DNA of 52,960 nucleotides from Catajapyx aquilonaris (Eukaryota). The notes below the pieces were generated by a model. That model was not told where the DNA came from. It saw only the letters and a program-made list of their open reading frames with translations, and searched no databases. The stretch is from contig JYFJ02002668.1 of the NCBI GenBank assembly GCA_000934665.2, positions 1 through 52,960 on the forward strand, read 5' to 3'. Shown here piece by piece: positions 4,570-51,202 of this stretch (the stretch's first letter is position 1; each line of letters starts with the position of its first letter). The translations under genes were made by a program, and so were the position numbers.

Positions 4570-6275
4570 AAATATGAAACATAGCAACAGTGTTCATTTC
4601 CCCCCTCCCAAAATAAATAAGCCAGTTACACAAAATTTTTGCTGCCATTATGAAACTTTCGGCAACATGACTGTGCCATGGTCCTAACACTCGTCACAGC
4701 CCGCTAATCCCCTCCTGTCCACATTATTTCTCTTCCAAGCAGCATCCCCGTAACCATGCATAACGTAGTTGTCCCGAAGCAATTCACTCACATTCTCATG
4801 TCCAGATGCGTGCAATTCCACTTGCCCACTGAAGGAATCAATTACTTCATTACTCTGGTGTAGGGATGCGTTTTCAGTGGCGCAGACAGCAAACACATCA
4901 CCTCTTCCTTCATTTCCTTGTGTCAGTAATTCAGGCATCTCCTGCCTCCAGTTTCCCTGCAAGTAACTCGCTTTTAGTTTTAATGTAAAGCAGCATTTTT
5001 GTGAGTTGACCCATTATTGCATCACACTGTCCAATTATCCCTCCGCTTTCGATCACTTCTGTGTACGTTGACTGACACCAAGTTCAACATATGTACCAGA
5101 CACTATACACATGGGTTTCCTGCTATAAATTAATTAATTAATAACATGTTATGTAGGGCAAAGTTTCTTTTTTTTGTTTGCCCATGGCAACAGCATTTTG
5201 TTGGTGATTATCATGGAAACAGGCTGTGCGAAGAAAGGGCTCCTCTGCAGCTAGTCTTTATATATGCTCATCTCAACCATACAGCCATCAATCTATCAAC
5301 AATCACCAGCTTCTCAACAAATCTATTAACTTTTCTACAAACAAGCTCATGAATCAATGGATGAAACACTGGGAATAAATGTTCTTACAGAATTTCAACC
5401 AAACAATTAACAACAAATTAATGAAAATTTCAACAATCGCATGCTTCTGTCTTCGTGCCAGCAGACAGTTCAAATTGAGGCAGAGGACAAGTTGACCGGC
5501 AACCTGGCAGACAGACAGAGGGGTACTGTAGCAAGCACCTGAACAGACTGCGAGAGGATATCTCGCATACAGCTGGCCTCGAGACAATTTTGACACTATG
5601 TGTTGGATGCAGTGTCATGCTGCGTCGAAACATACACGAGGGTTCGGTGAACGACTCCATGGGCACTAATGCCTTGCGCAAAATCAACCATGTATTTAAT
5701 TTCGTAAAATGCGTAAGTAAGACATCTGGGTTACATTAACCCTTATGGTGTAGCTCTTACGTGGCCCCGTCTTGTTTAAGTAAATTCTGTCCTTCACCTA
5801 GCTCTTACTTTCTTTTTTTTTTTAATTCCGTAGGAAGTGTTTTAGGGATAAAAATATGAAACATAACAACTGTGTTCATTTCCCCCTTCCCAGAATAAAT
5901 AAGCCTGTTACACAAAATTTTTGCTGCCATTATGAAACTTTCGGCAACATGACTGTGCCATGGTCCTAACACTCGTCACAGCTTGCTAATCCCATCCTGT
6001 CCACATTATTTCTCTTCCAAGCAGCATCCCCGTAACCATGCATAACGTAGTTGTCCTGAGGCAACTCACTCACATTCTCATGTCCAGATGCGTGCAATTC
6101 CACTTGCCCACTGAAGGAATCAATTACTTCATTACTCTGGTGTAGGGATGGGTTTTCAGTGGCGCAGACAGCAAACACATCACCTCTTCCTTCATTTCCT
6201 TGTGTCAGTAGTTCAGGCATCTCCTGCTTCCAGTTTCCCTGCAAGTAACTCGCTTTTAGTTTTAATGTAAAGCAG
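4570..6275. repeat. ~425-bp direct duplication (about 4570-4995 and 5850-6275) containing exon 3 of G1
   Basis: Near-identical sequence; both copies keep the AG acceptor, a 165-nt open exon (4956-4792; 6238-6074) and the GTGAGT donor. Confidence 0.9.
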
Positions 6276-7784
6276 CAAGATGCCTTTGCATTGTAATATG
6301 CACATACGAATTTGATAAATGTTCGATTAATAGTGAGCCTACCTATGAAGGAGTTGTCCCAGGTGAATGGCACTTTAGTACGTAGTCCTCCTGGAGTGTG
6401 ACAGTACTTCTCCCAGCAGTGGTCCAGCTTTTTGTCCCTCCGCGAAAAAATTATTTGTCTTGGTCATCACACCATTTATGAACATGTTGTCGTCACTGTT
6501 GAAACGCTGTTCTTCCAGGTGTCCTTTGAGTGTTGGGAACAGGTGATAGTCAGATGGTGTCACACAACAATTTGGCACAATCAGACTATCACCTGTTCCC
6601 AACACTACTGAAAGAACAGGGTTTCAACAGTGACACTGCCGTCATGAATGCTCTCGGGAAATGGTGTGGTGGCCAAGACAAATCATTTTTTCGCAAAGGA
6701 ACTTTTGCGCAGGGGACGCACTGGGCCACTGCTGGGAGAAGTGCAATCACACTCCAGGAGGACTACGAAGAGAAGTGCTAACGTGCCATTCGCCTGGTAC
6801 AACTCCTTCACAGGTAGGGGCACACTACTTATCAAACGCCCCACGTATACTGCAACAGGAACAGCCAACAATATTCTGTGTACCATTTGTACCTTTTGTA
6901 CAATCAAATGTCAGCAGTAAGGCTCATTCACAAAACCACTTTTTTTTTTAAAACTTAACTTTACCCATAAAAATAAAATTCTTAGTTCTATGACCGAAGC
7001 CTCCGATTGACCCAGGCCATATATTGTTACCGTGACGCTTCTGATTGGCACAATTCCGCACCAGCGCAATCGGGGTCGTTAGCTGGAGGGCAGATAGTCA
7101 CCATCGTCACTCCCGTAACCCATAAAACTACGGCGTACACCGCAGGCCCAGAAAAATGTAAGCAAACCGATGGTTTTTCTAGTAATTTTTTTTTAAAGAT
7201 TTCGCATGGCTGTGTGAATGTACCTTGACCCAGTCATACCTCAACATCCCAAAGGCCTAACCCATGGCCTGAAATGCATCAGCATGAGATCGTCCTGACA
7301 CTCGCCAGTGCAGAATGACAAGACGAAGCTTTACCTCTATCTCTAAAGTGCTGTTTACTGCTTCAGGCTGACCAAAGTTCTCTCCATCCATATCAAAACT
7401 TGCACAAGCCTCTCGATGAAAAAGCGGGTCTGGCTTATACTCTTCAATAGTAATCTCAGAGATTAGCTCATGATGCACTTCTGTAGGGAGTAGAGAGTAA
7501 CTTTACCACAAACGCAACGGACAACAAAAGAGAGTGAATTCCCAACTCCGGAATTCCACCCAACCTTCTTCATCATCATCATCAGTCCTCTTCCCTTCCT
7601 CTTCCCTCAGGATGAACCCTTCTATGCTAGCCATCCTCTGGTCCATCTCAGTCATCTTCTTGTCCATTTCTGCTGTCCTCCTGTCCATCTCTGCCATGGT
7701 CCTCTCAATCCTGTCGGTCTGAGCCAGGCTTCGTTCCAAGAGGGACACAATGTGGGACAACATGGTTGGTGGTTGGGTGGCCAT
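4792..7784 (-). CDS. G1: array paralog with exon 1 (7784-7565), exon 2 (7480-7335) and exon 3 in two copies; zinc-finger exon absent from the window
   Basis: MATQPPTMLSHIVSLLERSLAQTDRIERT...; splice sites and phases (1,0,0) match the other paralogs; no SQLP/C2H2 exon downstream. Confidence 0.75.
5460..5670 (+). mobile_element. Degenerate Pif1-like (Helitron RepHel) helicase fragment
   Basis: Translation from 5548 gives LREDISHTAGLETILTLCVGCSVMLRRNIHEGSVNDSMGT, resembling the Pif1 motif AGL..L.LKVGA.VML.RN....GLVNG.MG; frameshifted upstream. Confidence 0.65.
6307..6845. mobile_element. Foldback MITE made of two inverted mariner 3' ends
   Basis: Both arms encode SDYHLFPTL...FNSD (mariner YSPDLAPSDYHLF region) and one carries HCWEKC; TA dinucleotides at 6305-6 and 6846-7; axis near 6565. 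Confidence 0.8.
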
Positions 7785-7917
7785 GTCCTCCTCAGCAGTT
7801 CCACCAACAAGCAGGGCAGTCTTGAAGAAGGGAGAAGGATGATCCAGTGTCCAGAGGAATGAAGGAAAACGAAGCGATGGGAGCAGAAGAAAGAAAGGAA
7901 AATGAGATGAAACTAGA

Positions 7918-8452: not shown

Positions 8453-10452
8453 TCAAAGTTTTTGTTTCTGAGAAAGTTCCCTGGCGCCTCTAGGTGGAGT
8501 GCGACTTGGAGTTGCTCCATGACAATGTCGCACATGTTTATTCAGGCTAGTCCTCATGGTGAAGCTACGATCGCAGAATTGGCAAGAATATGGCCTTTCT
8601 CCTGTATGTGTGCGCAAATGCGCAATCAATTGATCTTTTTCGCGAAAACTATAGAGGCACAGATGACACCTGAATGGTTTCTCACCCGTGTGGACCATTC
8701 TGTGGCGCTTCAGATGATGAAATAAGCTAAAAGTCATGCCACATACTTCACACTCGTAAGGTCTTAAACCAAGATGAATAGTTTTCATATGACGAGATTG
8801 ATGACATTTGCTGGTGAAGCCAGCACCACACAATTTACAGTAAAATTTTGATTTACTCCCTCCTGGGTTAACCTTACCATGTACTGAATGGGTCAGCTGA
8901 TGATTAGCAAATTCTACCTTTCCATTGGTAGTATATGAACACATTTTGCAGCATAAAAAAGCAAGTGTCGTAGTCCTTCCTTTTCCTTTCCCTTCGCGTC
9001 TTAAAACAGTCCCCTGAGTCTTATTTGCTTGCAGACGCTTTGCAGATGCACTTCCTCCAGATGATTCTCCCTGTTCCACAAAGCTGTTTTGTTGTCCCGA
9101 CTGAGATCCCTGCACAACCACCTCTTCCTGTTTAACTCGAACTTCATGGGACTTGACACATTCTTCCAGAGCAGATGGAATGCTGAAAGTCTTGTTGCAG
9201 ATGCCACATTGAAAAGGGTCCTTGGAGGGCAACTGTCTCTTTGGATATAAACATATTTCAATTAGTGTCAACTAGTCATGGAAATCACTTAGAATTTTTT
9301 TTACAAATCCCCCCTCCAATCCTCCAATTAAGATAAGATGGATTGGCAGCAACCCTAGAATCATGCAAATGTCATTATCCCAAAGGAATACACTCACATT
9401 CTCATGTATAGATGCATGCAATTCCACTTGTCCATTGAAGGAATCTCCCACTTGATTACTCTGGTACAGGGATGGGTTTTCAGTTACGCAGTCAGTCACA
9501 GCAGCATCTCTTTCTTCATTTTGTTCCGTCAATAATTCAGTAGTCTCCTGCTTCCAGTTTTCCTGATGGAAAATAACTTCATCAGTTTCAGTGTGAAGCA
9601 GCAAAATTCCTTTGCATTGCACATGAATAAATTCAATTGGGAAACCAAACAATTTTGTGTGACTAGGCAATACTTCAGTAGAATCAAACATCAGCCTAAT
9701 AAGTTGCATTGAAGTTGGAATGCTTTAAAAAAAATAAACAATCTTGGGAATGTCTGTATCTCTAACAGCGCATTCGTCGAACAAAGACAAGTCAGCGCAC
9801 CCGATTTTGTCTCGCTGCTGCCCAGAAAGTGGTGGGAAACATAATGACCCGGCCCTCTTAAAAATAAATATCTCGCAGGCTGTGTCAATGAACCTTTAGC
9901 CAGTTACATCTTAACACCCCCCCTAAGCCGTAAATGCAGCATTACAAGATCCTGACACTCGACATCCCAGGAAGAATGACAAGAAAAGCTTACCTCTACT
10001 TCTACAGTGCTGTTTGCTACTTCAGTCTGTCCAACGTTTCCTCCATGAAGATCATAACTTGCAGACGTTCCTTGATGTAGAAGCTGCTCTAATTTATAAT
10101 CTTCAATGGTAACATCATGACTTCTTTCATGATGCAATTCTGTCGAGATAAAATGAATAATGGTATTGCAATGTGCAGAGAGAGAGCCTTGATTGAAGTA
10201 CGCTCCTCTCGCAACAACACCTCGTTTCATGTACACACAAGTTTTATCCCCAATCCCGAATCCCACCCAACCTGCATCAGTCTTCCTCCTTTCCTCTTCC
10301 TCCCTCAGGATGAACCCTTCTATCCTGGCCATCCTCCTGTCCATCTCTGCCATGGTCCTCTCAATCCTGTCAGACTGGGACAGGCTGCGCTCCAGGAGAG
10401 ACACGACGTAGGCCAATCTTGGACTGAGGACTGACTGTAAGGTGGTGGCCAT
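8453..10452 (-). CDS. G2: four-exon C2H2 zinc-finger protein (ZF exon 9238-8453)
   Basis: Exon 1 MATTLQSVLSPRLAYVVSLLERSLSQSDRIERT; exon 4 has six fingers with HTGEKP/HTGERP linkers; canonical splice sites. Confidence 0.88.
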
Positions 10453-12523
10453 CTCTTCACCAATTCTGGAGCTAGGAATTGAGGCGAAAAGAGAGGACAA
10501 CGAAGCGATGGGAACAGAAGAGAGAAGAAAGAAAAGGAAAAGGAGAGAAAAAGCAGAGATCTAAACAGACGCCATGTTGGGCGCATTCGAATCGACGCCA
10601 CGTTGCCTCCTAGGAACTGTTCAGAATATATCAAACATATTTCACATTCATTAATTTTACCTTCCTGTCTAAATAATGTTTTCAAATTGCATCAAATGGT
10701 GTATTCACATTCAACAAGTGATGGAACCTGTGATCTGAAAACAAAAAGTTCTCGCAGTGCATGTGTAGTACTTTACCGAAAGAAATTGTACTACTAAATA
10801 AATTGGGTTACATCTCTTAAAATGTGGGCTGGGAAAATCCACGTCAGGTGTATAAGTATTATTTCAATAATTATAAATTTCACAGACAAATAATTAGGAA
10901 ATAGCTGCTAAAATAATTTCATGTGCTCATATGCAAACTTATTATCCATTTACATTAATCCTGAACAGGTCCTTGTGTTATGAAATGGACACACAATTTA
11001 GTTCCGGTGTTCTGCCTATGGAATAAACAGTTGGTAAAAACCTATAAATCCGTTCTCTACACATTACACTAAAGGGAGATGACTATTTTCCTCTCTTTCC
11101 TTTGGTACATCTCGACGAGGGCATTATTTGTCGGGCATGGAATGTGTCCGGGGGTAAATTTCCTACAGCCAAAGCAAGCTTGTCCTGGTCTCGCACTTCA
11201 CCAGCATTTTACTGCACGTCTGAGGCAATGTACCTAGATTTCAACATAGGTCAAACTGAACTGAAGTGAATAAATGTAAAAAAATTTGCATCCAATAGTC
11301 GGAGCATGCAGTAGCATACAAAAGTAGTAGTGAAATGTGCTTGCCAGTACAATGAAAAGTTATTCTGTCTCTCAAGTCATTCTTGCTGGAAAAGCTACCT
11401 AACACCTCTAGATGGCTTGCAGTGGTTTCATGAAGACGTCGCACATGCACCTTCATGTTATGCTTCTAGGTGAACTTACGACTTCAAAATTGGAAAGAAA
11501 ATAGCTTTTCTCCAGTGTGTTTGAGATTAATCCAATCAGGTTGTGAACACAAAACGGAATGATTTCTCACCTGCGTGGATCTTTCTGTGACGCTTCAGAT
11601 TATAAGATTTGCTGAAAGCTAGATCACATACCTCACACTGGTAAGGTTTTAATGCAAGGTGAACAGCTCTCATATGATCAGATTGATTACTTTTAGTGGT
11701 GAACCTGGTACCACACAATTTGCAGTAAAATCTGGATTCACTCCTCCTTGGATGGGCCATACCACGCGCTGAATGAGTAAACTGATGGGATACAAACTCT
11801 GCCTTGTCTTTGGTAGCATATGAGCACATTTTGCAAAAGAATGCCCTAGGTTTTGTAGCCACTTTCCCTACTATTCCTTTCCTTTTGCAACTTATGAGAG
11901 TCCTCTCAGTCTCATTTGCCTGGAAACGCTTTGGAGATGCACTTCCTCCAGAGGATTCTCCCTGTGCCACAAAGATGTTTTGTTGTCCTAACTCAGAAAC
12001 CTCCATAACCTCCTCTTCTTGTTTAACCATCACTTCATGGGACTTAATGCATTCTTCCAGAGCGGATGGACTGTTGAAAGTCGCGTTGCAGATTCCACAT
12101 TGAAAAGGATCCCTGGAGGGCAGCTGGCTCTTTGGATATAGACAAAAATTAGTGTCAACAAGTTATGAAAATCCTTCTCCTGCTCCTGTAAATGACATGC
12201 TTTCCCGTCCCCCCCAATTGTGCAAGGTCTAAGCAATCAACATGAGCATTATGTTTGGAATGCAGTTTTCACCCCCTCTGATCTCTTTCCGGAATGTACA
12301 GTTGTACATCCTTACAAACTTGTGTTTATCTCCCTAAACCAGCAGGCAAGATTCCAGTTTTCTGGGTTCACTCCATCAGCTAAAATCAAATCTACAGACA
12401 GGTTGCCATATAAATTTGGTTACTTGGCATCAGGAAATGAGACTGACAATCAATGTCATTGTTGTTCAATTAGAATAGCATCCTGTCATTTCGGGTTTGT
12501 TAGCCTCATTTTCGACTGCCTAA

Positions 12524-12674
12524 AGGCCATTTCACAAAAAAATGTCGCGCGGCAAACGGCGCGCATTGCGCCAAATTTATTATTTATATTTATTATTGCC
12601 AACAATTAATATAAATAAAAAATTTGCCGCAACGCGCACTGTTTGCCGCGCGACATTTTTTTGTGAAATGGCCT
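12524..12674. mobile_element. PIF/Harbinger (Tourist-like) palindromic MITE
   Basis: TIR AGGCCATTTCACAAAAAAATGTCGCGCGGCAAAC; TAA on both sides; second copy at 36085-36234. Confidence 0.85.
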
Positions 12675-12677
12675 TAA

Positions 12678-12740
12678 GGACCAGTTGCACCGGCCTCAGT
12701 ATAACTTAGAACCTTATACTGAGGCCGGTGCAACTGGCCC
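12678..12740. mobile_element. 63-bp hairpin mini-MITE abutting the previous element
   Basis: 27-bp arms GGACCAGTTGCACCGGCCTCAGTATAA / TTATACTGAGGCCGGTGCAACTGGCCC with 1 mismatch. Confidence 0.7.
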
Positions 12741-14458
12741 CAAGGAGGAAAAGTCTACTCGTATCACGTTCGAGTGACTTGCCAATATTGTTTTCCCATA
12801 ATAATTAATAAGCCAGTTACCTGTTGGTGTCATATATCTATTGAAAGCTTGATTGTGTCACAGTCCTACCATAACAGGCTTCACAGCCCACCAATCCCCT
12901 CCTGCCTGCACTAATCCTCTTCCAAGCAGCACCCCCATAATCATGCATAATGTAGTTGTCCCAAGGCAATACACTCACATTTTCATGTGCAGATGGATGC
13001 ATGTCCACTTGTCCATTGAAGGAATCGTTCACATCATTACTTTGGTAAGAGGATGGATTTTCAGTCACACAGCAATCAATATTGGCCCCTCTTCCTTCAG
13101 TTTCTTGCGTCAATAATGCAGTCATCTCTTGCTTCCAGTGGCCCTGTTAAAGGAAAATTCATTAGTTTCAATGTGAAGCATCAAAATGCCTCTCCATTGC
13201 AACATGCACAAGTGCTTCCATCCAATGATTTAACAAGGCAATATGTCTGTAAGCTCACTCCCAAATCCTCTTCTTTTAATACACAAACTCTAAAATTAAT
13301 TTGCATTTTTAAAAAACTTACTGGAAAATAGACTCATTAGCATCTCAAAGGTCTAACGCATTTCATGAAATGGACAACCATGAAAACCTGACATTTGCTG
13401 AACCTACCGTAATCCTCAGAACCTCATAAGAATTATTATTGCAGACGAAGTTTACCTCTACGTCTAAAGTGCTGCTTGTTGCTCCAGGCTGTCCAAAGTT
13501 TCCTCCGTGAAGATCAAAACCTGCACAAGCCCCTTGATGTAAAAGCTGCTCCGACTTACAATCATCGATAGTAACATCAGAGCTTCTTTCATGATGCACT
13601 TCTGTAGGGAGTAAAGAGCAACTGGATTGTATACTTTACCACAAAGGCAATGAGGGCAACTCCGGAATTCTATCCAACCTTCATTGACAAGTGTCCTCTT
13701 CCCTTCCTGTTCCTTCAGGATGAACCCTTCTATCCTGGCCATCCTCCTGTCCATCTCTGCCATGGTCCTCTCAATCCTGTCATTCTGAGCAATGCTTCGT
13801 TCCAGGAGGGACACAATGTGGGGCAACCAGGTTGGTCCTTGGGTGGCCATGTCTCCTCCGCAATTCCACGAACAAGCAGTCTTGAAGGGAATGATGAGCC
13901 AGTGTCCAGAGGTTCAGAGGAAGGAAGGAAACTATGGGAGAGAGAAGAGAAGAAGAAGAAATGGAGAGAAAACCTGAACTAATCAGACGCCATGTTGGGC
14001 GCATTCGGATCGACGCCACGTTGCCTCCTAGGAACTGTTCAAAATGAATAGATCAATATGAACTGTGATGAGTATCACCAACTGTGACATTAAAAGAAAA
14101 CTCAGTGCATGATTACGTGACTCTGACAAGCAGAATTTATTCAATTATTTCAACATAACAGAATTAATTGCGCATAACCTATAATCAAGTCATTTCCTCA
14201 AGGTCTGCTTGTACGGGTCTTGCATTTCACTAGCATTTTCTCGGAAGTGTATGGCAATTACACCATAAATTTTGACACACCTGACCTGAATAAATATGCA
14301 AATTTTATTTGCAAGAATTCAAATCAAACAATAACTTAAGTTCCTTCCTCTGAGCAGTAACATACAATATCGGTACTGAGAAATGTACTTTCCATACTCC
14401 GAAAAGGTGCTTTTTCTGGCGGGGAAAGCCCCCATGATACCTCAGGATTGAGTGTGGT

Positions 14459-19644: not shown

Positions 19645-19833
19645 CACCAACATTACACAGTACATAACCCACATACAAGTAAGTGCAAGTCTTCCCTCAG
19701 GGTCAGCTTCTCCTTATCTTGTGTTTCCAGTTCTATTCTCCTGCTTATATGAAGGGGATTGATTATTCATTAGAATTTGATACATCTCGTAATGAACTCA
19801 GTGCATGTCATTGATGTCAAACATTTGTTACAA

Positions 19834-37338: not shown

Positions 37339-38229
37339 CTAAAGGTTTTCTTGCTGGGAAATTTCACTGACACCTCTAGATTGAGTGTGGCTTGCAGTTG
37401 CTTTATGAACACATCGCACATGGTTATTCATGGTAGAATTCTGCTTGAACTGAAGATTGCAAAATTGGCAAGAATACGGCCTTTCTCCTGTATGTATGCT
37501 GCGCAGATGTTTATTCAAATCAGATTTTGAACGAAAAGGACTACGGCACACATGACAACTGAATGGTTTCTCACCAGTGTGGACCATTCTGTGAATCTTC
37601 AGATGCTGAGGTCGGCCAAAAGCCTTCCCACATACCTCACACTGGTAAGGTTTTAACCCAAGGTGTACAGTTTTCAAATGCAAAGATTGATAATGTTTTG
37701 TGGTGAAGCTGGCACCACACACTTTGCAGCAAAATTTTGATTTACTCTCTCCTGGATGGACCTTACCATGTGCTGAATGGGTCAGCTGATGGGTAGCAAA
37801 ATCTACCTTTTCATTGGTAGCATATGAACAGACTTTGCAACAGAATAAAGCAGGTTTTGTAGCCCCTTGCTCCCTAGTTCCTTTCCTTTTGCATCTTAAT
37901 AGGGTACGCTCTGTCTCATTTGCCTGGAGATGCTCTGGAGATGCACTTCCTCCAGAGGATTCTCCCTGTACCGCAAAGATGTTTTGTTGTCCTAACTCAG
38001 AAACCTCCATAACCTCCTCTTCCTCTTCAACTTTCACTTCATGAGACTTGACACATTCTTCCAGAGCAGATGAAATGTTGAAGGTCTTGTTGCAGATTCC
38101 ACATTGAAAAGGGTCCCTGGAGGGCAGCTGGCTCTTTGGATACAAATAGACAAGAATTAGTGGCAACAAGTTATGAAAATCCTGCTCCTACTCCTAAGGC
38201 ACGATTTCTCTCTCTCCGACACCCACTCC

Positions 38230-38266
<37 letters not shown>

Positions 38267-39454
38267 TCCCCAAGTTGCAAACAAGCATCTAACAAATCAA
38301 CATGTATAGGTAGACACTGGACTCTAATACTTGTATGAATTTGAGACACCATAATTCAGTTGGTTTTTCCTCCAGAATTAATAATCCAGTTACACTAAAT
38401 TGTTGTTGGTGTCAAATCACTTACTTTTGTTTGGCAGCTTGATTGCAACATGGTCCTCAACAATCCCCTCCTGTTCACACTATTTTACTTTCAAGCAGCA
38501 TTCCTCATAACCATACTTAATGTAGCTAAACACTCACAATACGCAATACACTCACATTCTCATGCCCAGATGCATATAATTCCATGTGTCCATTAAGGGA
38601 ATCTTCCACTTCATTACACGTGTACATGGATGGGATCTCAGTTACGCAGTTAACAATATCAGCCCCTCTTTCTTCATTTCCTTGCAGCGATAATTCAGTC
38701 ATTTCCTGCTTCCAGTTTCCCTGAAGGAAAATTAACTTCATTAGTTTTGTTGTGAAGCATCAAAATGCCTGCATTGCAACAGGGATTAATATTTCAGAGG
38801 GGAAGCCCAGCCATTTTCTTTGAGCAAGCCATACTTCTGTGGAACCTATTATTTTCACTAAACAAGATTTAGAAGTAAAGCTTCGTAAAAAAAAACTGCT
38901 TGGGATACAAATATGGGTCTGTCATACTTGTGCATCTCAAAGGACTAACCCAATGCCTGAAATGCACTATTATGAAAACATGACATTTGCTGGATATACT
39001 ATAAATATCAGAATCTCATAATAATTCCAGGTGAAGCTTACCTCTAACTCTAAAGTGCGGTTTACTATTTCAGGCTCTCCAAAATGTGCTCCAAACATTT
39101 CAAAAGTAGCAGAAGTCTCTTGATATAGATGCTGCTCTGACCGATGATCTTCAATAGTTGCATCAGAGCTTCTTTCACGATGCACTTCTGTAGGGGGCAA
39201 TAAAGAGTAAACGGTATTGTATACTTTACAACAAAGACAATACGGCTTGAATTCCCAACTCTGAGCTACACCTAACCTTCATCATGAGTTGTCTTCCTCT
39301 TCCCTTCCTGTTCCTTCAGGATGAACCCTTCTATCCTGGCCATCCTTTGGTCCATCTCTTCAATGGTCCTCTCAATCCTGTCCGACTGAGCCAGGCTTCG
39401 TTCCAGGAGGGACACAATGTGGGGCAGCAACAAGGTTGTTGGTTGCGTGGCCAT
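37339..39454 (-). CDS. G9: four-exon C2H2 zinc-finger protein (ZF exon 38133-37339)
   Basis: Open exons, six fingers, extended C-terminus. Confidence 0.88.
38233..38262. repeat. (CT)n microsatellite
   Basis: Direct reading. Confidence 0.9.
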
Positions 39455-39971: not shown

Positions 39972-41941
39972 TCAAGTTGCTGCATGAATACGTTGCACAT
40001 GCTGAGTAAGGCTATGCTGCACGGAGAATTTACTATTGCAAAATTTGCAAGCATATGGCTTTTCTCCTGTATGTTTACGCAAATGCTTAATCAAATCAGA
40101 TTTTCCACTGAAACGGTGATGGCAGAAATGACAACTGAATGGTTTCTCACCTGTGTGGACCATTCTGTGACGCTTCAGATTCTGAGAGTGGCCGAAAGCC
40201 TTCCCACATACCTCACACGGATAGGGTTTTAATCCAAGGTGAACTGCTTTCATATGCGCAGATTGATGATATTTGGTTTTGAATCCGACACCACACAATT
40301 TGCAGTAATATTTTGATTTACTCCCTCCTGAATGGGTCAGCTGATGAGACACAAATTCTACCTTCTCACTGGTAGCATATGAACACAGTTTGCAACAGAA
40401 CGATGCTGGTTTTTTGGCCCATTTCCTTCCCTTTTCTTTCCTTGTGCGTCTTGAAAGGGTCCTCTCAGTCTCATTTGCCTGGAGGAGCTCTGGAGATGCA
40501 CTTCCTTCAGATGATTCTCCCTGCACCACAAAGCTGTTTTGTTGTCCTGACTGAGATGCCTGCATAACCACATCTTCCTGTTCAACTTTCACTACATGCG
40601 ACTTGACACATTCTTCCAGAGCAGATGGAATGTTGAAAGTCTTGTTGCAGATTCCACATTGAAAAGGGTCACCGGATGCCAGCTGGTTCTTTAGATATAT
40701 AAATGGATAAAAATAAGCTACTGACAAAACACCCTTTATCTCCCTAAACCAGCTTGCAAAATTAAGTTGCAAATCGTAAGGCAGAAACCAATCAACATGT
40801 GTAGAGACAATTGGCTATACTCTGTCCAACTCATGTAGGCCAGAGTGGATTGTGATAATTAAGACGAAGTGGATGCTGGATTCAAAACTTATCTGAATTA
40901 GAGACATCTCAATTGTGTTATTTACCTGCCAGAATAAGCCACTTACAATAAATTGTTGGTGCTGTTATATCACTTATTTTTGACAGCTTAACTGTGCCAT
41001 GGTTCTACCTTAACAGTTTTCACAGCCCACAAACCTCCTCCTGTCCACATTATTTTTCTCATGTGTACACTCACATTCTCATGTGCAGACGCATTCAATT
41101 CCTCTTGTCCTTCGAGGTAATCACCCAACTCATTACTCCGATATACAGATGGGTTTTCAGTTTTGCAGTTAACAATATTGGCTCCTCCTCCATTATTTTC
41201 TTCTGTCATTAATTCAGCTGTCTCCTGTTTCCAGTTTTCCTGGAGTAAAATAACTTCATTACATTGCAGCAAAGCATAAGTACTTCAATGGGAAAACCCA
41301 ACCTTTTTCTGTACTAGGTAATCAAATATCAAATCCATTCTCAAAACCTCTTATTTTCACTAAACAAGCTTTAGAATGGTTTAAAGAAAATTTTGGGAAT
41401 CAAAGATGGCTGCGCCATACATAAACACCCCAAAGGCCTAACCCATGGCCTGAAATGCAGCATCATGCGGCACTGACATTTCCTGGAACTACCATAAATT
41501 TCAGAACCTCAGAAAAATTACAGGTGGACCTTACCTCTACATCTGAAGTGCTGTTTACTTGTCCTTCGGCATATCCTAAATTTCCTTCAATAACATCAAA
41601 ACTTGCACAAGTCCCTTGATGTAGAAGCTGGTCTGACTTACAATCTTCTATGGTAATCTCAGAGCTTATTTCATGATGCAGTTCTGTACGGAGTAGAAAG
41701 TAACAGTAATATATGTTCCGCAAATGCATTAATAAGAATCTCTGAATTCAATGCAACCTGCATCAGGCAGTATGTTCCTTCTCCTCCTCTTCCTCCCCAC
41801 ATTCTTCTGTATAAAATCTTCTATCCTAGCCATCCTCCTGTCCATCTCAGCAATGGTCCTCTCAATCCTGTCACTCTGAGCCAGGCTTCGTTCCATGAGG
41901 GACACAATGTGGGACAGCAAGGTTCGTGGTTGGGTGGCCAT
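39972..41941 (-). CDS. G10: four-exon C2H2 zinc-finger protein (ZF exon 40688-39972)
   Basis: Open exons; shortened linker between fingers 2 and 3; exon 1 has an NLS-like GRKRRRR. Confidence 0.88.
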
Positions 41942-42444: not shown

Positions 42445-44356
42445 TCAAGTTGCTCCGTGAATGTGTTGCACATGCGAAGTCATGTTACGCTTGCTGCTGA
42501 ACTTCTGATTGCAAAATGGGCAAGAGTACGGCTTTTCTCCTGTATGTTTATGCAAATGCTGATTCAAATTAGATTTCGTTAAAAAACCTTGAAGACACAG
42601 ATGACAACTGAATGGTTTCTCACCTGTGTGGACTACTCTGTGACGCTTCAGATCATGAGATTTGCTGAAAGCCTTCTCACATACCTCACATTGGTAACGT
42701 TTTAATCCAAGGTGAACAGATTTCCAATGATCTGATAAAGAGTATTTAGTGGTGAAGCTGGTACTGCACAATTTGCAGCAAAATTTTGATTCACTCCCTC
42801 CTGGATGAACCTTACCAGGTGCTGAATGGACCAACTGATGAGAAACAAATTCTACCTTGTCATTGGTAGCATATGAACACATTTTGCAACATAATGAAGC
42901 AGGTTTTTTGGCCCCTTTCTTTCCCTTTCCACCCCTCTTGTATCTTGAAATGGTCCTTTCATTCTCATTTGCCTGGGGATGCTTAGGAGATGCACTTCCT
43001 CCAGATAATTCTCCCTGCAGCTCAAAGTTGTCCTGTTCTCCTGACTGAGAAACCTCCATAACTTCCTCTTCCTGTTTAACTATCACTTCATGGGACTTGA
43101 TGCATTCTTCCAGAGCAGATGGAATGTTGAAAGTCTTGTTGCAGATTCCACATTGAAAAGGGTCCCTGGAAGGCAGCTGGCTCTTTGGATATAAATAGAT
43201 AAAAATCAGTGTCAACCAGCCATGAAAATCCAGAAATAGGCCTACTTCTGTAAATAACTTGCACACTTTATAATAAGAGAGGCCTATCCATCCCCACAAA
43301 GGCAATACACTCACATTCTCATGTCCAGATGCATGCAATTCCACTTGTCTATTGATGGAATCCTCCACTTCATTAATTAGGTGTGGAGATGGGTTTTCAG
43401 TTACACAGTTAACAATAATGGCCCCTATTCCTTCATTTTGTTGGGTCAATAATTCAGTCATATCCTGCTTCCAGTTATCCTGAAGGAAAATGACATCATT
43501 AGTTTTGATGTGAAGCAGCAAAATGCCTTCGTACTGCAACAAGTACTGCACAAGTACTTCACTCCAACGATTTTCCAGGCAATAGTTCTGTAGAATTAAA
43601 TGACAGCCTTAAAGCTCATTCCCAAACCCCCTTCATTTCAGCAAGCCCTTGGTTTTAGTTGGTGTGTTTACATGTAAGTGATTTGATGAGCGAAGTCTTC
43701 TACGAGGGTGAGTAACGCAATAACCAATATTGTTTGCGACGAAAATCGATTGTTAATTTCAGCCTCGGCAGATTTCGCTCATCAATCGCTCCCATGTAAA
43801 AGCACATTTAAGAAGAGGTTTTAATGATCGTGTCACACCTTAACATACACCATATCTCAAATGCCATGACCTGAATTACATCATTATAAGACAGTTACAT
43901 TTGCTGGAAATACCATAAATCTGAAAACCCCAGAAGAAATACAGGTAAACCTTACCTCTAATGTGTTGTTGTGTCCAAAGTTTCCTCCAACAAGATCAAT
44001 AGTTGCACATGTCCGTTGATGTAGATTCAGCTCTGACTGATGATCTTCAATAGTAACATTAGAGCGTCTTTCATGATGCAATTCTGTAGGGAGTAGAGTG
44101 TAACAGAATTGTATATGTTCCCACAAAGGCAACGGCATATAGGGCTTGAAATTCCAACTATGCCTTTCAGCAAACCTTCATCATGTAGAGTCCTTCTCCT
44201 CCTCCTTTCCTGTTCCTTCAGGATGAACCCCTCTATCCTGGCCATCCTCCTGTCCATCTCTGCCATGGTCCTCTCAATCCTGTCCGACTGAGCCAGGCTT
44301 CGTTCCAGGAGGGACACAATGTGGGGCAACAACAAGGTCGGTGGTTGGGTGGCCAT
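42445..44356 (-). CDS. G11: four-exon C2H2 zinc-finger protein (ZF exon 43182-42445)
   Basis: Open exons; the 368-aa ORF reads through exon 3, a 132-nt intron and exon 4. Confidence 0.88.
43661..43806. mobile_element. Short MITE; inverted second copy at 52064-52222
   Basis: Termini GGTGTGTTTACATG / CATGTAAAAGCAC; core CGAAAATCGATTGTTAATTTCAGCCTCGGC is shared in reverse complement with 52100-52135. Confidence 0.7.
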
Positions 44357-45074
44357 GTCTCCTCAACAATTCCGCGAACAAGCAGGGCAGTCTTGAAGTG
44401 GGGAGCCAGTGTCCAGAGGAAACGAAGCGATGGGAGTTCAGAAGAGAGACGAAAGAGAGACAAAAAGGAGAAAAAACCAGAACCAAGAACTACCCAGACG
44501 CCATGTTGGGCGCATTCGGATCGACGCCACGTTGCCTCCAACGATCTGTTCGAAATTGATGAATGGCCGGAACTTTTGCATTTAAAATATAAAATACCTT
44601 GCGCTTCCTACATTAATTTGACTGAAGGAAATTGACCAAAATCAACTGGGTTGAAACTCTTCAATGTGGGCTGGATAGTCCCTGTGAGGTGTATTTCAAT
44701 AATAATAATAAACTTCATACAAGTCATACACAATAACATGCGACATAAGAAACATTAATATACGTGCATAATTCGTAATCACGTCTTATTCCCTCAAGAT
44801 CAGATTGTCCTGGTTTTGCATTTGACTAGCATTCCCCTACATGTGTATGGCATTATGTCATAGATTATAACAAAGGTCATATTGAACTGAACACCTGTCA
44901 AAACTTTCATTTGCAAGAGTTTAAATTAAACAATAACTTATAATTTCCTTCTTCTGAGCAGCAGGACATTGAAGGAGTGAAATATGGTTTCCCTTACTGG
45001 AACAAGTTACACTGTGGCACCATGGAAACTCTTTAAATTATTATTGCCGAGGAAGTCCCCTCGCACCTCAGGAT

Positions 45075-47292
45075 TCAGTGCGTCTGGCTTGCACTTGCTG
45101 CATGAAAACGTCGCATGTGCTTAGTCAAGCTAAACTTCATGGTGAACGTATGATTGCAAAATTGGCAAGAATATGGAACTTGTGTGTGTGTGTGGAAATG
45201 CCTATTCAACTCAGCTTTTTCCCAAAAACATTTAAGGCACACATGACAACTGAATGGTCTCTCACCTGTGTGGATCATGTTGGGTCTATTCCTAGAAGCT
45301 GATCGGCTGAAAGCCATCACACACACTTCACACGTATAAGGCTTTAATCCTAAGTGAACAGCTTTCATATGACCAGACTGACCATATTTGGTTGTGAAGC
45401 TGGCACCACACAATTTGCAGTAAAATTTTGATTTGCCCACTTCCAGGTGGACCTTACCATGTGCAGAATGGACCAACTGATGAGATACTAATTCTACCTT
45501 TTCATTAGTAGCATATGGGCAGACTTCGCAATAGAAGAAATCAGATTTTTTGGCCCCTTTCTTTCCCCTTTGCATCTTAACAGGGTATGCTCAGTCTCAT
45601 TTGCCTGGACATGCTCTGGAGATGCACTTCCTCCAGATTATTCTCCCTGCACCACAAAGCTGTTTTGTTGTTCTGAGTGAGAAGCCTGCATAACCTCCTC
45701 TTCCTGTTCACATCTCACTGTATGCAACTTGACACATTCTTCCAGAGCAGACGGAATGTTGAAAGTCTTGTTGCAGATTCCACATTGAAAAGGGTCCTTG
45801 AAAGGCAGCTGGCTCTTTGGATATAAAAATAAATGGATTCCATTCAGTGCCAAGCAATGCTAAAAACTCACAACAATCCCCACTATGGTCACACTATTTC
45901 TCTTACAATCATCATTACGGGAACAATGCATAATATATTAGTGCAAAGGGAACACACTCACATTCTCATGTCCAGACAGGGACAATTCCGGTTGTCCATA
46001 CAAGGAATACACGACTTCGAGGGATGGGTTTTCAGTTGCACAGAAAACAATATTGGCCCCTCTTCCTTCATTTTGTTCTGTCAATAATTCAGGAATATCT
46101 TGCCTCCAGTTTTCCTATATGGAAAATATAAACTTCACTAGTTTTTGATGTGTAGAAAAAAATGCCTTTCTGTATGCAACAATGAACATGCACATGTGCT
46201 TCATTCCAACAAACCTATGCAAAACGTTTGTAGAATCAAATGTCAGCTTCAAGACTCATTCCCAAAACCACTTCTTTTTCACTAAACAAAGCACTATTAT
46301 TGTTTGGAGATTTTAAGAAACCCAGGAATCACACTGGCTGCGTCATACCTTAATACCCCAAAGGCCTAACTCATTGCCTGAAATGCAGCATGAAGAATAG
46401 CCCATAAACCTCAAATCCTTAGAAGAATTACATGTGACGCTTACCTCCACTTCTAAAGTGTCATTTGGTACTTCAGGCTGTCCAGAGTTTCCTCCAAGAA
46501 GATCAAATCTTGCAGAAGTCCCTTGATGTGGAAGCTGCTCTGACTGACAATCTTCAATAGTAATCGGAGAGATTAGCTCACGTTTCAGTCCTGTAGGGAG
46601 TAGAGGGTAAGACAATTACACATGCTCCCAAAAATGTAATGGACAAAGAAAGGGCTTGAATTTCCATTTTGATTGTAGTTTTATAGGCAGGAAATACTGG
46701 TTTAATATATCTCAAACTTTCTGGTTTCCTTTCTACATTGTGCATTACCAATGAATGGCTAGAATCATTTTTTGATAAGGGTTCCATTAAAAGTAGCCCA
46801 CAAAGAATGAAGCAGAGCAACGAGCCACCTGACCCAGTCTTATGCAGACCCCTGTGAACTTACTTGCTCCCACCCACTGACAAGTGAGTGAAGCTTCCCA
46901 TTAAGCGCTGGTGCTACTTCACAGTTCCCAAGGCGGTCTCGGTGAGTAACTCTGCAAGCGTCTACCTGATCCAGCTGCAATGGAAGGAGTCATCTGCCAG
47001 GAACTGCCCCGGGAACTGTGGAGAAACACTCAGTGTCTAATTGGTGGTCCCTCAGTGTATGGGAGCAAGTAAGCTCACACCAAAGTTGGAGGGAGTGTTG
47101 TTATACCCAACCTGCATCATCAGTCCTCTTCTTCTCTTCCTCCCTCAGGATGAACCCTTCTATCCTGGCCATCCTCCTGGCCATCCTCCTGTCCATCTCT
47201 GCCATGGTCCTCTCAATCCTGTCGGTCTGAGCCAGGCTTCGTTCCAGGAGGGACACAATGTGGGGCAACCAGGTTGGTGGTTAGGTGGCCAT
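45075..47292 (-). pseudogene. G12: zinc-finger pseudogene
   Basis: ATG GCC ACC TAA at codon 4; TAA at 45640-38; frameshift near 45575; finger 4 His to Pro; upstream motif missing; ~0.4-kb foreign insert in intron 1. Confidence 0.9.
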
Positions 47293-47302
47293 GTCATTGG
47301 TT

Positions 47303-48869: not shown

Positions 48870-48976
48870 CTTTGCTTTGGTTGAAAGAAGGAATTCCGCG
48901 TCCGCCCCTTTCGCCCAGCCCCCCAAATCACCTACTGCGCATGCTCCCAGGACTCTTTGAGGCTCGGTAGGCAAAA

Positions 48977-49015
48977 AAACAAACAAACAAACAAACAAAC
49001 AAACAAACAAACAAA
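48977..49015. repeat. (AAAC)n microsatellite
   Basis: Direct reading. Confidence 0.9.
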
Positions 49016-49581
49016 AAACCAAAAAAAAAACCACATTATTCAGACATTATTCAGATCTTTAGATCATAGATCCCATGAAAAAAGTATCTAGATACAAGTA
49101 CAGATATCCATGCCAGATGTATTTTTCAATAATAAGAATAAATTCCACACAAATCATTACAAAATATCTGCTGAGAATTTATATGTTCTCATGGGCAAAA
49201 TATAACATATCAGAAACATTTATATACACCTGACTTTAACTAGTCTTCCCCCAAGGTCGGCTTCTCCTGGTCCTGTACTTCACTAGCATTCTCTTGGATG
49301 TGCATGGCCGTGCATGGCATATGTAGCGATTTTAACATAGGCCATTATACGAACTGAAAACGCACATGTCATGCTTGCAACAGTTACAACAAATCAATAA
49401 TAATTACAAGTTGCTTCTCCTGAGCAGTAGCAGCAGTGAAATGTGCTTGCCAATAATATACAGAGAAAAAAAGTTATCCTGTCACTCAAAGTTTTTCTTG
49501 CTGGGCTTGCAGCTGCTGCATGAATATGTCGCACATTCTATTATATAATCAGGCTGTACGTCCTTCGCATAGAACAAATAA

Positions 49582-51202
49582 TTACACAATTTCTTCTGAA
49601 TGTGTTGTCATATGCTTGTTCAAGCCTCTTCTTCTGCTAAATCGTTCATGGCACACATGACAACTGTAAGGTTTCGCACCTGTGTGGACCACTCTGTGAC
49701 TCTTCACTTGCTGAGATTGGCTGAAAGCCTTGCCACATAGCTCACACTGGTAAGGTTTTAACCCAAGATGAATAGCGTTCACATGACGAGATTGAGATTG
49801 TTTTGTGGTGAAGCTGGCACCGCACAATGCGCAGTGAAATTTTGATTTACTCCCTCCTGGATGGACCTTACCAGCATGTGCTGAATGGGTCAGCTGATGA
49901 GTAGCAAATTCTACCTCTTCACTGGTAGCATATGAACAGAATTTGCAACTAAATGACTTAGGTTTTGCAGTCCCTTTCTCTCCATTTCCTCTCCTCTTCT
50001 CAGTCTCATTTGCCTGGAGATACTCTGGAGATGGACTTCCTCCAGATGATTCTCCCTGGACCACAAAGCTGTTTTGTTGTCCTGACTGAGACATGTCCAT
50101 AACCTCATCTTCCTTTTCACCTCTCACTGCATGCGACTTGACACAGTCTTCCAAAGCAGACAGAATGTTGAAAGTCTTGCTGCAGATTCCACATCGAAAG
50201 AGGTCCTTATTGGAGGGCAGCTGGCGCTTTGGATATAAATATATTCAAATCAGTGACAATTAGTCATAAAAAGCCACAACAATCCCCACTTGATCACACT
50301 ATTTCTCTTACATGCGCTGCATCCCTTGAGATCTACTGTAGTTATGAAAAACTGACATTTGGTGGACATACCATAAATCACACACCTTATTAGTAGAATT
50401 AGTGGGGGAGATGAAGTGGCGCCGCGGTAACGCGCGCGCCCACGGATATTAAGGTCCCGGGTTCAATCCCCACCCGGGGTTCCCACCTTTATCCGTGCAG
50501 AGTTGGGCCATCTCTGGCTTCATTTCGGGTGGCAATTTCCGGCAGACTAAGCCACCCGGGGGAGTTCACAAAATGACGATTAGAGACATTGCACTTGCAC
50601 TTTGCACATCCCCTCCCACCCGCCCTTGGAGCATACTAATTAAGATTCTTCTTAAACTCGCTCCAAAAAAACAAATTCCAAAGGTGGAAACCCACCCCCC
50701 CTAAGGAGTAGTATAACTCCCCCCGTGGGGTAATGAAAAAAATAAAAAATAAATTAGTAGAATTAGTGGTATAGGAAACCTCTCACCTCTACCACTAGAG
50801 CTTTGTTTGCTACTTCCGCCTGTCCAGAGTTTCCTCCAAAAATATCAGAACTTGCAGAAGTCCCTTCATGTAGATACTGCTCTGATACGTAATCTTGAAT
50901 CGTAGCATCAGAGCTTCGTTCAAGATGCAGTTCTGTAGAGATTGGAGAGTAACCGTATTGTATACATTCCCACAAATGCAACGGGCATAGATAGGGCTTG
51001 AATTCAAATCTGTGAGTTACACCCAACCTGCATCGTGATGTGTCCTCTTCCTCTCTTCCTCCCTCAGGACGAACTCAGCATCTATCCTGACCATCCTTTG
51101 GTCCATCCCTGCAACGGTCATTTCCATCCTGTCAGTCTGAGCCAGGCTTCGTTCCAGGAGGAACACAATGTGGGGCAACCAGGTAGGTGGTTGGGTGGCC
51201 AT
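49582..51202 (-). CDS. G13: divergent paralog lacking exon 3 and finger 6 (ZF exon 50226-49582); possibly a pseudogene
   Basis: Exons 1, 2 and 4 are open; intron-3-like sequence joins intron-2-like sequence at ~50330; ORF ends HSEEIV*, with a VRHIHAAA remnant at ~49510-49535; upstream motif degenerate. Confidence 0.7.
50406..50752 (+). mobile_element. Full-length tRNA-derived SINE
   Basis: A box TGGCGCCGCGG, B box GGTTCAATCCC, A-rich tail, TSD ATTAGTAGAATTAGT(GG) at 50389-50405 and 50753-50769. Confidence 0.9.

Follow-up and report, generated by a model that had tools for sequence, protein, structure and literature searches.

The window analysed here is the whole 52,960-nt stretch of Catajapyx aquilonaris contig JYFJ02002668.1, and its exon-1-bearing array is probably a head-to-tail series of 13 paralogous four-exon C2H2 zinc-finger genes that combine a constant helix with variable fingers. 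Exactly 13 copies of exon 1 are recovered both by a six-frame motif scan and by an nhmmer profile; all are on the minus strand, with ATGs at 51202, 47292, 44356, 41941, 39454, 36496, 33427, 29608, 26876, 17451, 13850, 10452 and 7784. The window also carries 53 C2H2 motifs, likewise all on the minus strand and distributed over 12 finger exons; unit 13 (ATG 7784) is the only one of the 13 units to lack such an exon. Under the four-exon model the ORF is intact in 10 of the 13 copies, and unit 1 adds a further intact copy as three exons. The 13 head-to-tail genes of the initial annotation hold up as 13 exon-1 copies on one strand, but the count has to be qualified for the 12 finger exons, one pseudogene and one shortened unit.

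All units are described on the minus strand, with their exons in order. Unit 1 (49582..51202; exons 1, 2 and 4 at 51202-51028, 50932-50787 and 50226-49582) has no exon 3 and retains an intact three-exon ORF with four fingers; among the 13, it has the most divergent exon 1. Upstream of it, beyond the 4792..51202 range of the initial annotation, lie relics of a further unit (51717..51991, minus strand), namely partial matches to exon 2 (51991-51897) and exon 3 (51825-51717). Unit 2 (45075..47292; 47292-47112, 46590-46445, an exon-3-like segment at 46114-45962, and exon 4 from 45814) is a pseudogene: its fourth codon is TAA, and its exon 4 carries both a frameshift and an in-frame stop. Intact units with five fingers are unit 3 (42445..44356; 44356-44176, 44083-43956, 43479-43315, 43182-42445; all five canonical), unit 4 (39972..41941; 41941-41758, 41683-41535, 41239-41075, 40688-39972), unit 5 (37339..39454; 39454-39277, 39187-39042, 38720-38556, 38133-37339), unit 6 (34414..36496; 36496-36319, 36064-35916, 35578-35414, 35145-34414), unit 10 (14459..17451; 17451-17241, 17144-17002, 16653-16489, 15196-14459) and unit 12 (8453..10452; 10452-10272, 10139-9994, 9562-9398, 9238-8453), the last with a divergent N-terminal tail in exon 1. 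Three more units have intact ORFs with four motif-complete fingers: unit 7 (31485..33427; 33427-33247, 33158-33016, 32654-32490, 32222-31485), in which finger 4 is missing one His; unit 8 (27693..29608; 29608-29440, 29343-29201, 28851-28687, 28427-27693), with a one-residue deletion in finger 2; and unit 9 (21894..26876; 26876-26666, 26569-26427, 23055-22891, 22631-21894), whose intron 2 spans 3371 nt. Unit 11 (11420..13850; 13850-13679, 13601-13456, 13143-12979, 12129-11536) is a truncated or decaying copy; its ORF (ATG 13850) ends after finger 3, and DNA homologous to the finger exon runs on to 11420. In unit 13 (4792..7784; 7784-7565, 7480-7335, 6238-6074) no finger exon was found, and a second copy of exon 3 lies at 4955-4792 within a 97%-identical duplication with a spacing of 1282 nt.

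The gene model is drawn entirely from conservation and reading-frame logic. A conserved phase 1 donor (AG/GT) closes exon 1 in all 13 copies, and donors and acceptors are conserved throughout the four-exon model, with compatible phases (0>1, 1>0 and 0>0). The exon-1 block had been placed on its own exon, apart from a single finger exon; the predicted exons 1 and 4 agree with this arrangement, but two exons lie between them. These exons 2 and 3 are acidic or polar and contain no recognisable domain. A variable K/R-rich basic patch after the exon-1 helix resembles a nuclear-localisation signal, suggesting that the family proteins may be targeted to the nucleus. We find it hardly credible that the array consists of duplicated DNA that is decaying or no longer transcribed, with a four-exon model that is an artefact of common descent. 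The 13 units do include one pseudogene, one unit lacking a finger exon and one truncated copy, and units 7, 8 and 9 are each one finger motif short. However, 11 of the 13 have open ORFs (roughly 320–430 codons) at an inter-copy dS of about 0.3–0.4, splice sites and phases are conserved, and dN/dS lies below 1 in every exon partition, with only the DNA-contact residues of the fingers reaching about 1.

Exon 4 begins with an atypical finger (C-x2-C-x12-C-x3-H) that is conserved and isolated, and that constitutes a second conserved block absent from the initial annotation. Between it and the canonical fingers lies an acidic linker, disordered and about 60 residues long. The canonical fingers form a constant set of five, and a long, non-canonical spacer separates F1 from F2. 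In the predicted model of exon 4, six units adopt the beta-beta-alpha fold and residues 34–93 of the exon are disordered; matches to the Pfam families zf-C2H2 and zf-H2C2_2 comfortably exceed the cut-offs. We estimated selection with the NG86 method for 10 genes (45 pairs). At the DNA-contact positions −1, 2, 3 and 6 of the five canonical fingers, dN/dS is 1.04 (0.58–1.97), versus 0.47 (0.35–0.64) for the other finger residues.

The exon-1 block, (P)HIVSLLERSLAQ[ST]DRIERTMAEMDRRMARIEGFIL, is found in 13 of 13 copies, as first described, and 19 of its columns are invariant among the 12 uninterrupted copies compared. Among the 10 four-exon copies, mean pairwise amino acid identity is 0.90 in the exon-1 core, compared with 0.61 in exon 2, 0.61 in exon 3 and 0.65 in the finger region. 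The initial claim that exon 1 is the more conserved part therefore stands against these regions but not against the first ∼30 residues of exon 4, which are about as conserved (0.84–0.88). For the exon-1 core, dN is 0.071, dS 0.235 and dN/dS 0.30 (bootstrap interval 0.17–0.53), whereas the other exons pooled give a dN/dS of 0.56 (0.48–0.66) and a dS of 0.36. Among 5000 random, equally sized codon sets, none had a dN as low as that of the core, and 17 had a dN/dS as low. The initial annotation had raised a dN/dS near 1 and recent gene conversion as possible objections to exon 1; the ratio is not near 1, at a dS that is not near 0, and nucleotide identity is 0.84 in exon 1 versus 0.68 in the 150-nt 5′ flank and 0.675 in intron 1, so local gene conversion does not explain the conservation. 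The evidence supports reading exon 1 as genuine coding sequence maintained by purifying selection.

Some recombination or conversion has nonetheless touched exon 1, given its somewhat low dS (132 of 5000 random codon sets are equally low) and the near absence of correlation between the distance matrices of exon 1 and the finger region (r = 0.07). The nearest paralogue also changes from exon to exon. Taken as a whole, the units support turnover of the family by birth-and-death plus mosaic recombination, in line with the rapid turnover first proposed. In 11 of the 13 units a 15-nt element, TCCCRTCGCTTCGTT (e.g., at 44421..44435, minus strand), is conserved about 45–100 nt before the ATG; 11 matches compare with 0.07 expected, and 0 of 100 shuffles reached 11. 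This is a candidate core-promoter or 5′UTR element. The reduced dS, the decoupled exon relationships and the conserved element just upstream could all be read as signs that exon-1 conservation is mainly a DNA-level effect, through gene conversion, recent shuffling of 5′ ends, or promoter-proximal or translation-control constraint, rather than helix function. We consider this highly unlikely, as identity falls sharply at both exon-1 borders, dN is cut about three-fold while dS falls by only about one third, exon-1 indels are all multiples of 3 nt with the frame open in 12 of 13 copies, and the conserved positions are the hydrophobic heptad positions.

AlphaFold2 folded the exon-1 core, from a shallow alignment of 12 paralogues (Neff 1.6), as a single helix spanning residues 6–59 with a mean pLDDT of 87.1. 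In 11 of the 12 copies, no more than 3 of 2000 shuffled sequences match the hydrophobic periodicity at 3.5 residues; the divergent unit 1 is the exception, with 173 of 2000. The predicted helix, which is amphipathic, and its significant heptad periodicity fit the coiled-coil character first ascribed to this module. The heptad core places I/M/M/M/I/I at alternating a/d positions and is unbroken from the DRIER motif onward, for about three heptads (five in three copies); Ser occupies the a/d positions that precede it on the N-terminal side. The sole large in-frame insertion, carried by units 9, 10 and 13, is exactly 14 residues (two heptads) long and keeps the register. The one register-breaking insertion, of four residues (RRMA), is confined to exon 1 of pseudogene unit 2. 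A core of ∼3 heptads does not guarantee a coiled coil that is stable on its own.

Searches with the exon-1 module detected no relative of it among known domains. At E≤10, Pfam returned no KRAB (PF01352), SCAN (PF02023), ZAD (PF07776), BTB or DUF3669 match, and hhalign against the corresponding alignments gave probabilities of 0.13% for KRAB, 0.08% for SCAN and 0.08% for ZAD. The initial impression that the block resembles neither KRAB, SCAN nor BTB agrees with these results, and the Pfam search, suggested there with DUF3669 in mind, found no strong match to a known family. The exon-1 peptides contain no Cys, so they are not ZAD-like, again as proposed. Searches of PDB sequences and of a protein atlas gave, respectively, nothing significant and no relative. 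An hmmsearch of the exon-1 profile against all 1.84 billion protein representatives yielded one match at E≤0.001 (E 7.8e-4), which we rejected as spurious; it is a bacterial repeat/heptad protein. The module could belong to a described family, or have annotated relatives, that were missed because it is short, compositionally biased and encoded by a small, often-skipped first exon. The profile has only 57 positions (Neff 1.6), word-index protein searches require shared 5-mers, and the window's own proteins are not represented in the libraries searched, so related species may lack annotation too. We assign this a very small probability in view of the negative results above, to which may be added that the pre-finger part of exon 4 has no relatives in the word-index protein search and that three peptide strings from the exon-1 block are absent from the searched literature. 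Judged by sequence, the array looks like a new lineage-restricted zinc-finger subfamily.

We infer that the family encodes transcription factors and that the exon-1 helix serves in oligomerisation or docking. The helix would provide a coiled-coil-type protein–protein interface, for self-association, for pairing among family members, or for docking to a common partner, and the diversified fingers would give the paralogues different DNA targets. Growth and decay of the array may proceed via unequal crossing-over, with recombination between copies. A rather unlikely alternative is that the helix is an effector in the KRAB or FiNZ sense, recruiting a co-repressor, and that the family forms a lineage-specific transposon-silencing system. 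The small N-terminal exon, one finger exon and tandem cluster with pseudogenes recall the KRAB and FiNZ layouts, and the contact residues evolve faster relative to dS than other finger residues. Wells et al. (2023, PMC10547256) describe dozens of uncharacterised ZNF families across animals, and FiNZ, as described there, is likewise a short N-terminal sequence unlike known domains. However, the five fingers are fixed and interrupted by the long F1-F2 spacer rather than forming a long variable array, the dN/dS interval at contact residues includes neutrality and leaves positive selection unsupported, and the window holds only 13 copies.

Our preferred reading, of an interaction helix on diversified fingers, has partial counterparts among known systems. 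As in tetrapod KRAB-ZNFs, effector exon(s), putative in the present family, precede a single finger exon, copies are clustered and undergo birth-and-death, and DNA-contact residues vary. KRAB is about 75 aa long and binds TRIM28, and the finger arrays of KZNFs are long and vary in size. The KRAB-like layout of the initial annotation is thus only approximate, with four coding exons and a fixed 5+1 set of fingers here, and KRAB itself is set apart by the search results above. Vertebrate SCAN ZNFs similarly carry an all-helical N-terminal module, which acts in oligomerisation, on C2H2 proteins. SCAN comprises several helices over about 84 aa, whereas the present module consists of a single helix whose heptad core is short and has no SCAN match. 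The ZAD is a zinc-coordinating fold with four Cys, unlike the Cys-free exon-1 peptides, which also gave no ZAD match. Arthropod ZAD-C2H2 proteins nevertheless offer a parallel, an N-terminal module on a rapidly expanding lineage-specific C2H2 family, and ZADs are described as forming homodimers (Bonchuk et al. 2021, PMC7913770), the same function that we propose for the exon-1 helix.

The FiNZ-ZNF genes of cyprinid fish, of which zebrafish has about 700 and for which TE repression is backed by experiment (PMC10547256), are likewise a tandemly expanded, lineage-restricted family. In them, a short N-terminal sequence unlike known domains has an exon to itself, upstream of the one finger exon. 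FiNZ is described as 28 aa long and Glu-rich, with the ZNF-array exon directly next (Wells et al. 2023, PMC10547256). Compared with that description, the core here is longer (about 35–49 aa) with an R/M/E/I heptad pattern, two more exons and the atypical finger intervene, five fingers are fixed, and 13 copies are seen. Finally, the isolated conserved finger, apart from the DNA-binding array, recalls those Drosophila transcription factors in which a single C2H2 finger, carrying a CGEx motif, mediates dimerisation (bioRxiv 10.1101/2025.09.04.674178). The C-x2-C-x12-C-x3-H spacing sets ours apart from the CGEx fingers as described; by analogy, it might likewise serve protein contacts.

The N-terminal module of the Catajapyx aquilonaris zinc-finger array is a genuine, selected, heptad-patterned helix (predicted) without detectable relatives. 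A six-frame scan of the window finds the block (P)HIVSLLERSLAQ[ST]DRIERTMAEMDRRMARIEGFIL 12 times on the minus strand, together with a 13th copy that reads SLMERS, and a DNA-level profile derived from those copies recovers exon 1 at exactly 13 minus-strand places and nowhere else in the window. The exon-1 ATGs lie, on that strand, at 51202 (unit 1), 47292 (unit 2), 44356, 41941, 39454, 36496, 33427 (unit 7), 29608 (unit 8), 26876 (unit 9), 17451 (unit 10), 13850 (unit 11), 10452 and 7784 (unit 13). Both searches agree with the 13 tandem single-strand copies described in the initial annotation, but its 13 zinc-finger genes hold for exon 1 only: the 53 C2H2 motifs of the window, all on the minus strand, are spread over just 12 finger exons, and several units are damaged.

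DNA alignments of the repeated blocks outline a predicted four-exon gene. The exon-1 donor (AG/GT, phase 1) is conserved in 13/13 copies. Exon 2 has a conserved YACAG/AA acceptor and a GAG/GTAAG donor, in place of which four copies use a donor 6 nt upstream; exon 3 is bounded by a CAG/G acceptor and an AAT/GTGAGT donor, and exon 4 opens at AAAG/AGCCAG. The phases are compatible (exon 1, 0>1; exon 2, 1>0; exon 3, 0>0; exon 4, start in phase 0), and in 10 of the 13 units the joined exons form ORFs of 1077–1284 nt with no internal stops. Unit 1 has no exon 3, and its exons 1, 2 and 4 read open because the 0/0 phases of exon 3 permit skipping. The window has a G+C content of about 43% and two N bases, at 23064 and 30373; the first falls within a poly-C tract that directly precedes the exon-3 acceptor of unit 9.

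The tandem array presents a picture of birth and death of units. Unit 2 is a pseudogene, since it carries TAA at codon 4, a four-residue insertion, and a stop and a frameshift in exon 4. The ORF of unit 11 ends after finger 3, while DNA homology to the entire finger exon carries on, and units 7, 8 and 9 have each lost one finger motif. Unit 13 retains exons 1–3 and lacks the finger exon; a second copy of its exon 3 (4955–4792) lies within a direct duplication (4685–4959 and 5967–6241, 97% identical, 1282-nt spacing) that is much younger than the remaining unit duplications. Upstream of unit 1, partial exon-2 and exon-3 relics occupy 51991–51717. For units 7, 8 and 9, duplication seems to have taken in a longer 3′ flank; a non-coding element, which translates (with stops) as ...AGE*NWKHKIRRS..., is repeated on the minus strand 3′ of their finger exons, at about 30213, 27457 and 19750. 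Intron 2 of unit 9, within 22891–26427, measures 3371 nt, versus 295–476 nt in the other units, and units 9 and 10 are set about 4.4 kb apart by a spacer (17452–21893) whose G+C drops to 0.34 at 18001–20000. Both are probably insertions; the ORFs within them match no Pfam family.

Two further minus-strand ORFs accompany the array. One, of 639 aa (P0121, 1235–3154), sits at the array end where unit 13 is without its finger exon; it matches no Pfam family and has a C-terminal H..R..H/Y-type motif. In the protein atlas it neighbours eukaryotic hypothetical proteins (0.98; Chordata and Arthropoda commonest) and, at weaker scores of 0.88–0.89, fungal DUF3435 proteins, which suggests a Crypton-type recombinase. 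The ORF may thus belong to a Crypton-like tyrosine-recombinase transposon, which we offer as a lead only. The other, of 201 aa (48441–49046), encodes a MADF DNA-binding domain (PF10545; 36.5 bits, cut-off 22; E 6.5e-9) in the enlarged spacer that separates unit 1 from pseudogene unit 2, and could be a gene of its own or an insertion derived from a transposon. Rfam yields 0 matches at the gathering threshold. A 15-nt sequence, TCCCRTCGCTTCGTT, precedes the ATG by about 45–100 nt in 11 of the 13 units (11 matches versus 0.07 expected), on the minus strand at 7868–7882, 10499–10513, 17530–17544, 26950–26964, 29701–29715, 33510–33524, 36579–36593, 39515–39529, 42023–42037, 44421–44435 and 51281–51295. 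Missing or diverged in pseudogene unit 2 and in unit 11, it is a candidate core-promoter or 5′UTR element.

Substitution patterns single out exon 1. We estimated dN/dS by the Nei-Gojobori method, with bootstrap intervals, across the 10 four-exon genes (45 pairs). The initial annotation had raised the prospect that the exon-1 ratio would lie near 1 and that recent gene conversion would explain the conservation; the exon-1 core instead has dN 0.071, dS 0.235 and dN/dS 0.30 (0.17–0.53). Exon 2 gives 0.223, 0.363 and 0.62 (0.40–0.95), exon 3 gives 0.234, 0.388 and 0.61 (0.40–0.89), the part of exon 4 preceding the fingers 0.162, 0.322 and 0.50 (0.37–0.68), the finger region 0.211, 0.380 and 0.56 (0.42–0.74), and everything but exon 1 0.202, 0.360 and 0.56 (0.48–0.66). 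Among 5000 size-matched random codon sets, none is as low as the core in dN, 17 are as low in dN/dS and 132 in dS. At the nucleotide level, exon 1 is 0.84 identical between copies, whereas the 150 nt upstream reach 0.68 and intron 1 reaches 0.675; conservation therefore ends at the exon borders.

Exchange between units has nevertheless left a mark on these values. The dS of exon 1 is about one third below that of the rest of the gene, which counts against a reading of selection alone, exon-1 and finger-region distances are nearly uncorrelated (r = 0.07), and the nearest paralogue changes from exon to exon. Together these comparisons indicate that recombination or conversion between units has occurred. 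Such exchange cannot account for the three-fold drop in dN in exon 1, and purifying selection on a helix of 35–49 residues is clear. We rejected a role of exon 1 as a mere 5′UTR or promoter element because its ATG is conserved, its frame is open and its dN is much lower than its dS.

The selected peptide has the pattern of a coiled-coil helix. AlphaFold2, given the alignment of 12 paralogues, models exon 1 as one continuous helix (residues 6–59, mean pLDDT 87.1, pTM 0.50). Hydrophobic residues recur with a period of 3.5, and no more than 3 of 2000 shuffles attain the observed power in 11 of 12 copies, against 173 of 2000 for unit 1, the divergent copy. From DRIER onward, I, M, M, M, I and I fall at alternating d and a positions; N-terminal of DRIER the a and d positions are Ser, so that the uninterrupted heptad core comprises about three heptads. 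In units 9, 10 and 13 an insertion measuring exactly 14 residues, or two heptads, keeps the register and lengthens the core to five heptads, and the sole register-breaking insertion, of four residues, sits in pseudogene unit 2. Long helix, hydrophobic a/d positions and 3.5-residue repeat are thus combined in the exon-1 peptides as modelled, and the N-terminal coiled-coil-type module proposed in the initial annotation is borne out by the predicted helix, its periodicity and the two-heptad insertion. A two-copy complex prediction of the exon-1 peptide, run without controls, scored 0.07 (mark, 0.32), a value that carries no weight either way on binding. C-terminal to the helix, a Lys/Arg-rich stretch varies between copies (amino-acid identity 0.39) and resembles a nuclear-localisation signal.

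Comparisons with described families return no convincing relative of this helix. A Pfam search of the 12 exon-1 peptides at E ≤ 10, in which HMMER filters discard most matches above E of about 0.1, yields only scattered coiled-coil-type families (best E 0.003), each matched by at most three of the 12. KRAB (PF01352), SCAN (PF02023), ZAD (PF07776), BTB/POZ (PF00651) and DUF3669 (PF12417) are all missing from these matches, and neither the KRAB box, BTB/POZ nor DUF3669 is found in the exon ORFs, which match zinc-finger models only, besides a few far-sub-threshold chance matches. Alignment with hhalign gives probabilities of 0.13% against 16 KRAB-ZNFs, 0.08% against seven SCAN-ZNFs and 0.08% against two ZAD-ZNFs, and Cys, including the quartet characteristic of ZAD, is absent from all 12 aligned peptides. 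The initial annotation had judged the block to be neither KRAB, SCAN, BTB nor the Cys-bearing ZAD, and had proposed a profile search that included DUF3669; its judgement stands.

Wider searches of exon 1 point the same way. Among PDB sequences the best match (E 0.019) is a 31-residue channel coiled-coil peptide. The exon-1 profile, which is short and shallow, retrieves one protein from 1.84 billion representatives with hmmsearch (E 7.8e-4), a bacterial-looking VRVEDRL repeat protein that we discounted. Word-indexed searches of 5.8 billion clusters examined 26 candidates for exon 1 (of 'longer' lengths) and 22 for exon-4 residues 1–112, none of which gave a score. The best protein-atlas neighbours of exon 1 (0.87) are hypothetical proteins of bacteria and phages; recognition fell short of the mark, and we rejected them as chance. 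We likewise rejected the three matches that passed tblastn in metagenome (2 of 133 pattern matches) and viral (1 of 60) scans, all of them in ORFs of bacterial or phage type whose loci carry no C2H2 motif. Three peptide strings taken from the exon-1 block are absent from the papers searched, and no paper describing an exon-1 helix ZNF family is among the matches listed by keyword literature searches. The window's own proteins are absent from the protein libraries searched, so unannotated relatives could exist. Nothing in these comparisons indicates that the exon-1 module is a known domain.

The remainder of the protein combines a second constant block with variable fingers. C2H2 membership, taken as zf-C2H2 and zf-H2C2_2 above gathering score with tandem ββα units and TGEKP-type linkers, is evident: PF13465 scores 71.8–77.4 bits (cut-off 40) and PF00096 61.9–71.1 bits (cut-off 25.2). 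The finger exon retrieves 1553 candidates, of which 1451 are generic ZNFs with E ≤ 0.001; the best 120 of these 1451 reach at most 48% identity over the aligned part and include no close relative and no window protein. The initial annotation described exon 1 as far more conserved than exons 2–3 or the finger helices. Exon 1 does have the lowest dN, but a sliding window over the codon alignment shows that the opening ∼30 residues of exon 4 (SQLPSRDPFQCGICNKTFNIPSALEECVKSH), which the annotation did not mention, are also constant (identity 0.84–0.88, pN 0.05–0.10). This block is an atypical finger with C-x2-C-x12-C-x3-H spacing, sub-threshold against zf-C2H2 (E 0.007) and modelled as a ββα unit (pLDDT about 80), one of six such units in the exon-4 model. 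It is followed by ∼60 residues with pLDDT <50, acidic by sequence, and then by five canonical fingers with pLDDT mostly 77–93. Finger positions −1, 2, 3 and 6 have dN 0.56 and dN/dS 1.04 (0.58–1.97), versus a ratio of 0.47 (0.35–0.64) for the other finger residues. This pattern shows that the DNA specificity of the fingers diversifies; positive selection is not proven.

Each intact protein would join two constant parts, the heptad helix and the atypical finger, to one variable part, the five fingers. A coiled-coil-type association interface appears to be the most economical reading of the helix, through which paralogues might self- or cross-associate or engage a shared partner. KRAB- or FiNZ-like recruitment in transposon control is possible. 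We consider it rather unlikely that the helix, perhaps with the atypical finger, is an undescribed accessory domain defining an independent KRAB/FiNZ-like subfamily, in which the constant module would recruit a silencing or architectural cofactor (or homo- or hetero-oligomerise) while the five diversifying fingers track fast-changing targets such as transposons.

C2H2-ZNF families with a lineage-specific N-terminal accessory domain (KRAB, SCAN, ZAD, FiNZ) are recurrent in animal genome regulation and defence. To our knowledge, each of these domains that has been characterised has led to a cofactor pathway or an interaction mode. The present cluster is best filed as a putative C2H2-ZNF subfamily defined by such a module, and offers a compact, testable example: a selected helix, a length series of three versus five heptads, a broken-register pseudogene and an atypical finger. 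Should the helix serve in dimerisation or recruitment, the toolkit would gain a new, very small module, along with another independent case of a constant effector combined with variable fingers; if not, the array is one more species-restricted ZNF cluster.

The hallmark of KRAB-ZNFs is TRIM28/KAP1 binding and transcriptional repression. FiNZ, as described by Wells et al. (2023, PMC10547256), is a Glu-rich domain of 28 aa followed directly by the finger exon, and the same source counts dozens of such ZNF families as still uncharacterised. Compared with that description, the exon-1 module has neither the FiNZ layout nor its Glu enrichment: two exons intervene in the 10 intact units and one in unit 1, and the 35-aa core, read from the alignment, is richest in Arg (7), with Glu (5) second and Met (4) third. 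As an N-terminal association module, the helix would play a role analogous to that of SCAN or of ZAD, which is described as forming homodimers (PMC7913770).
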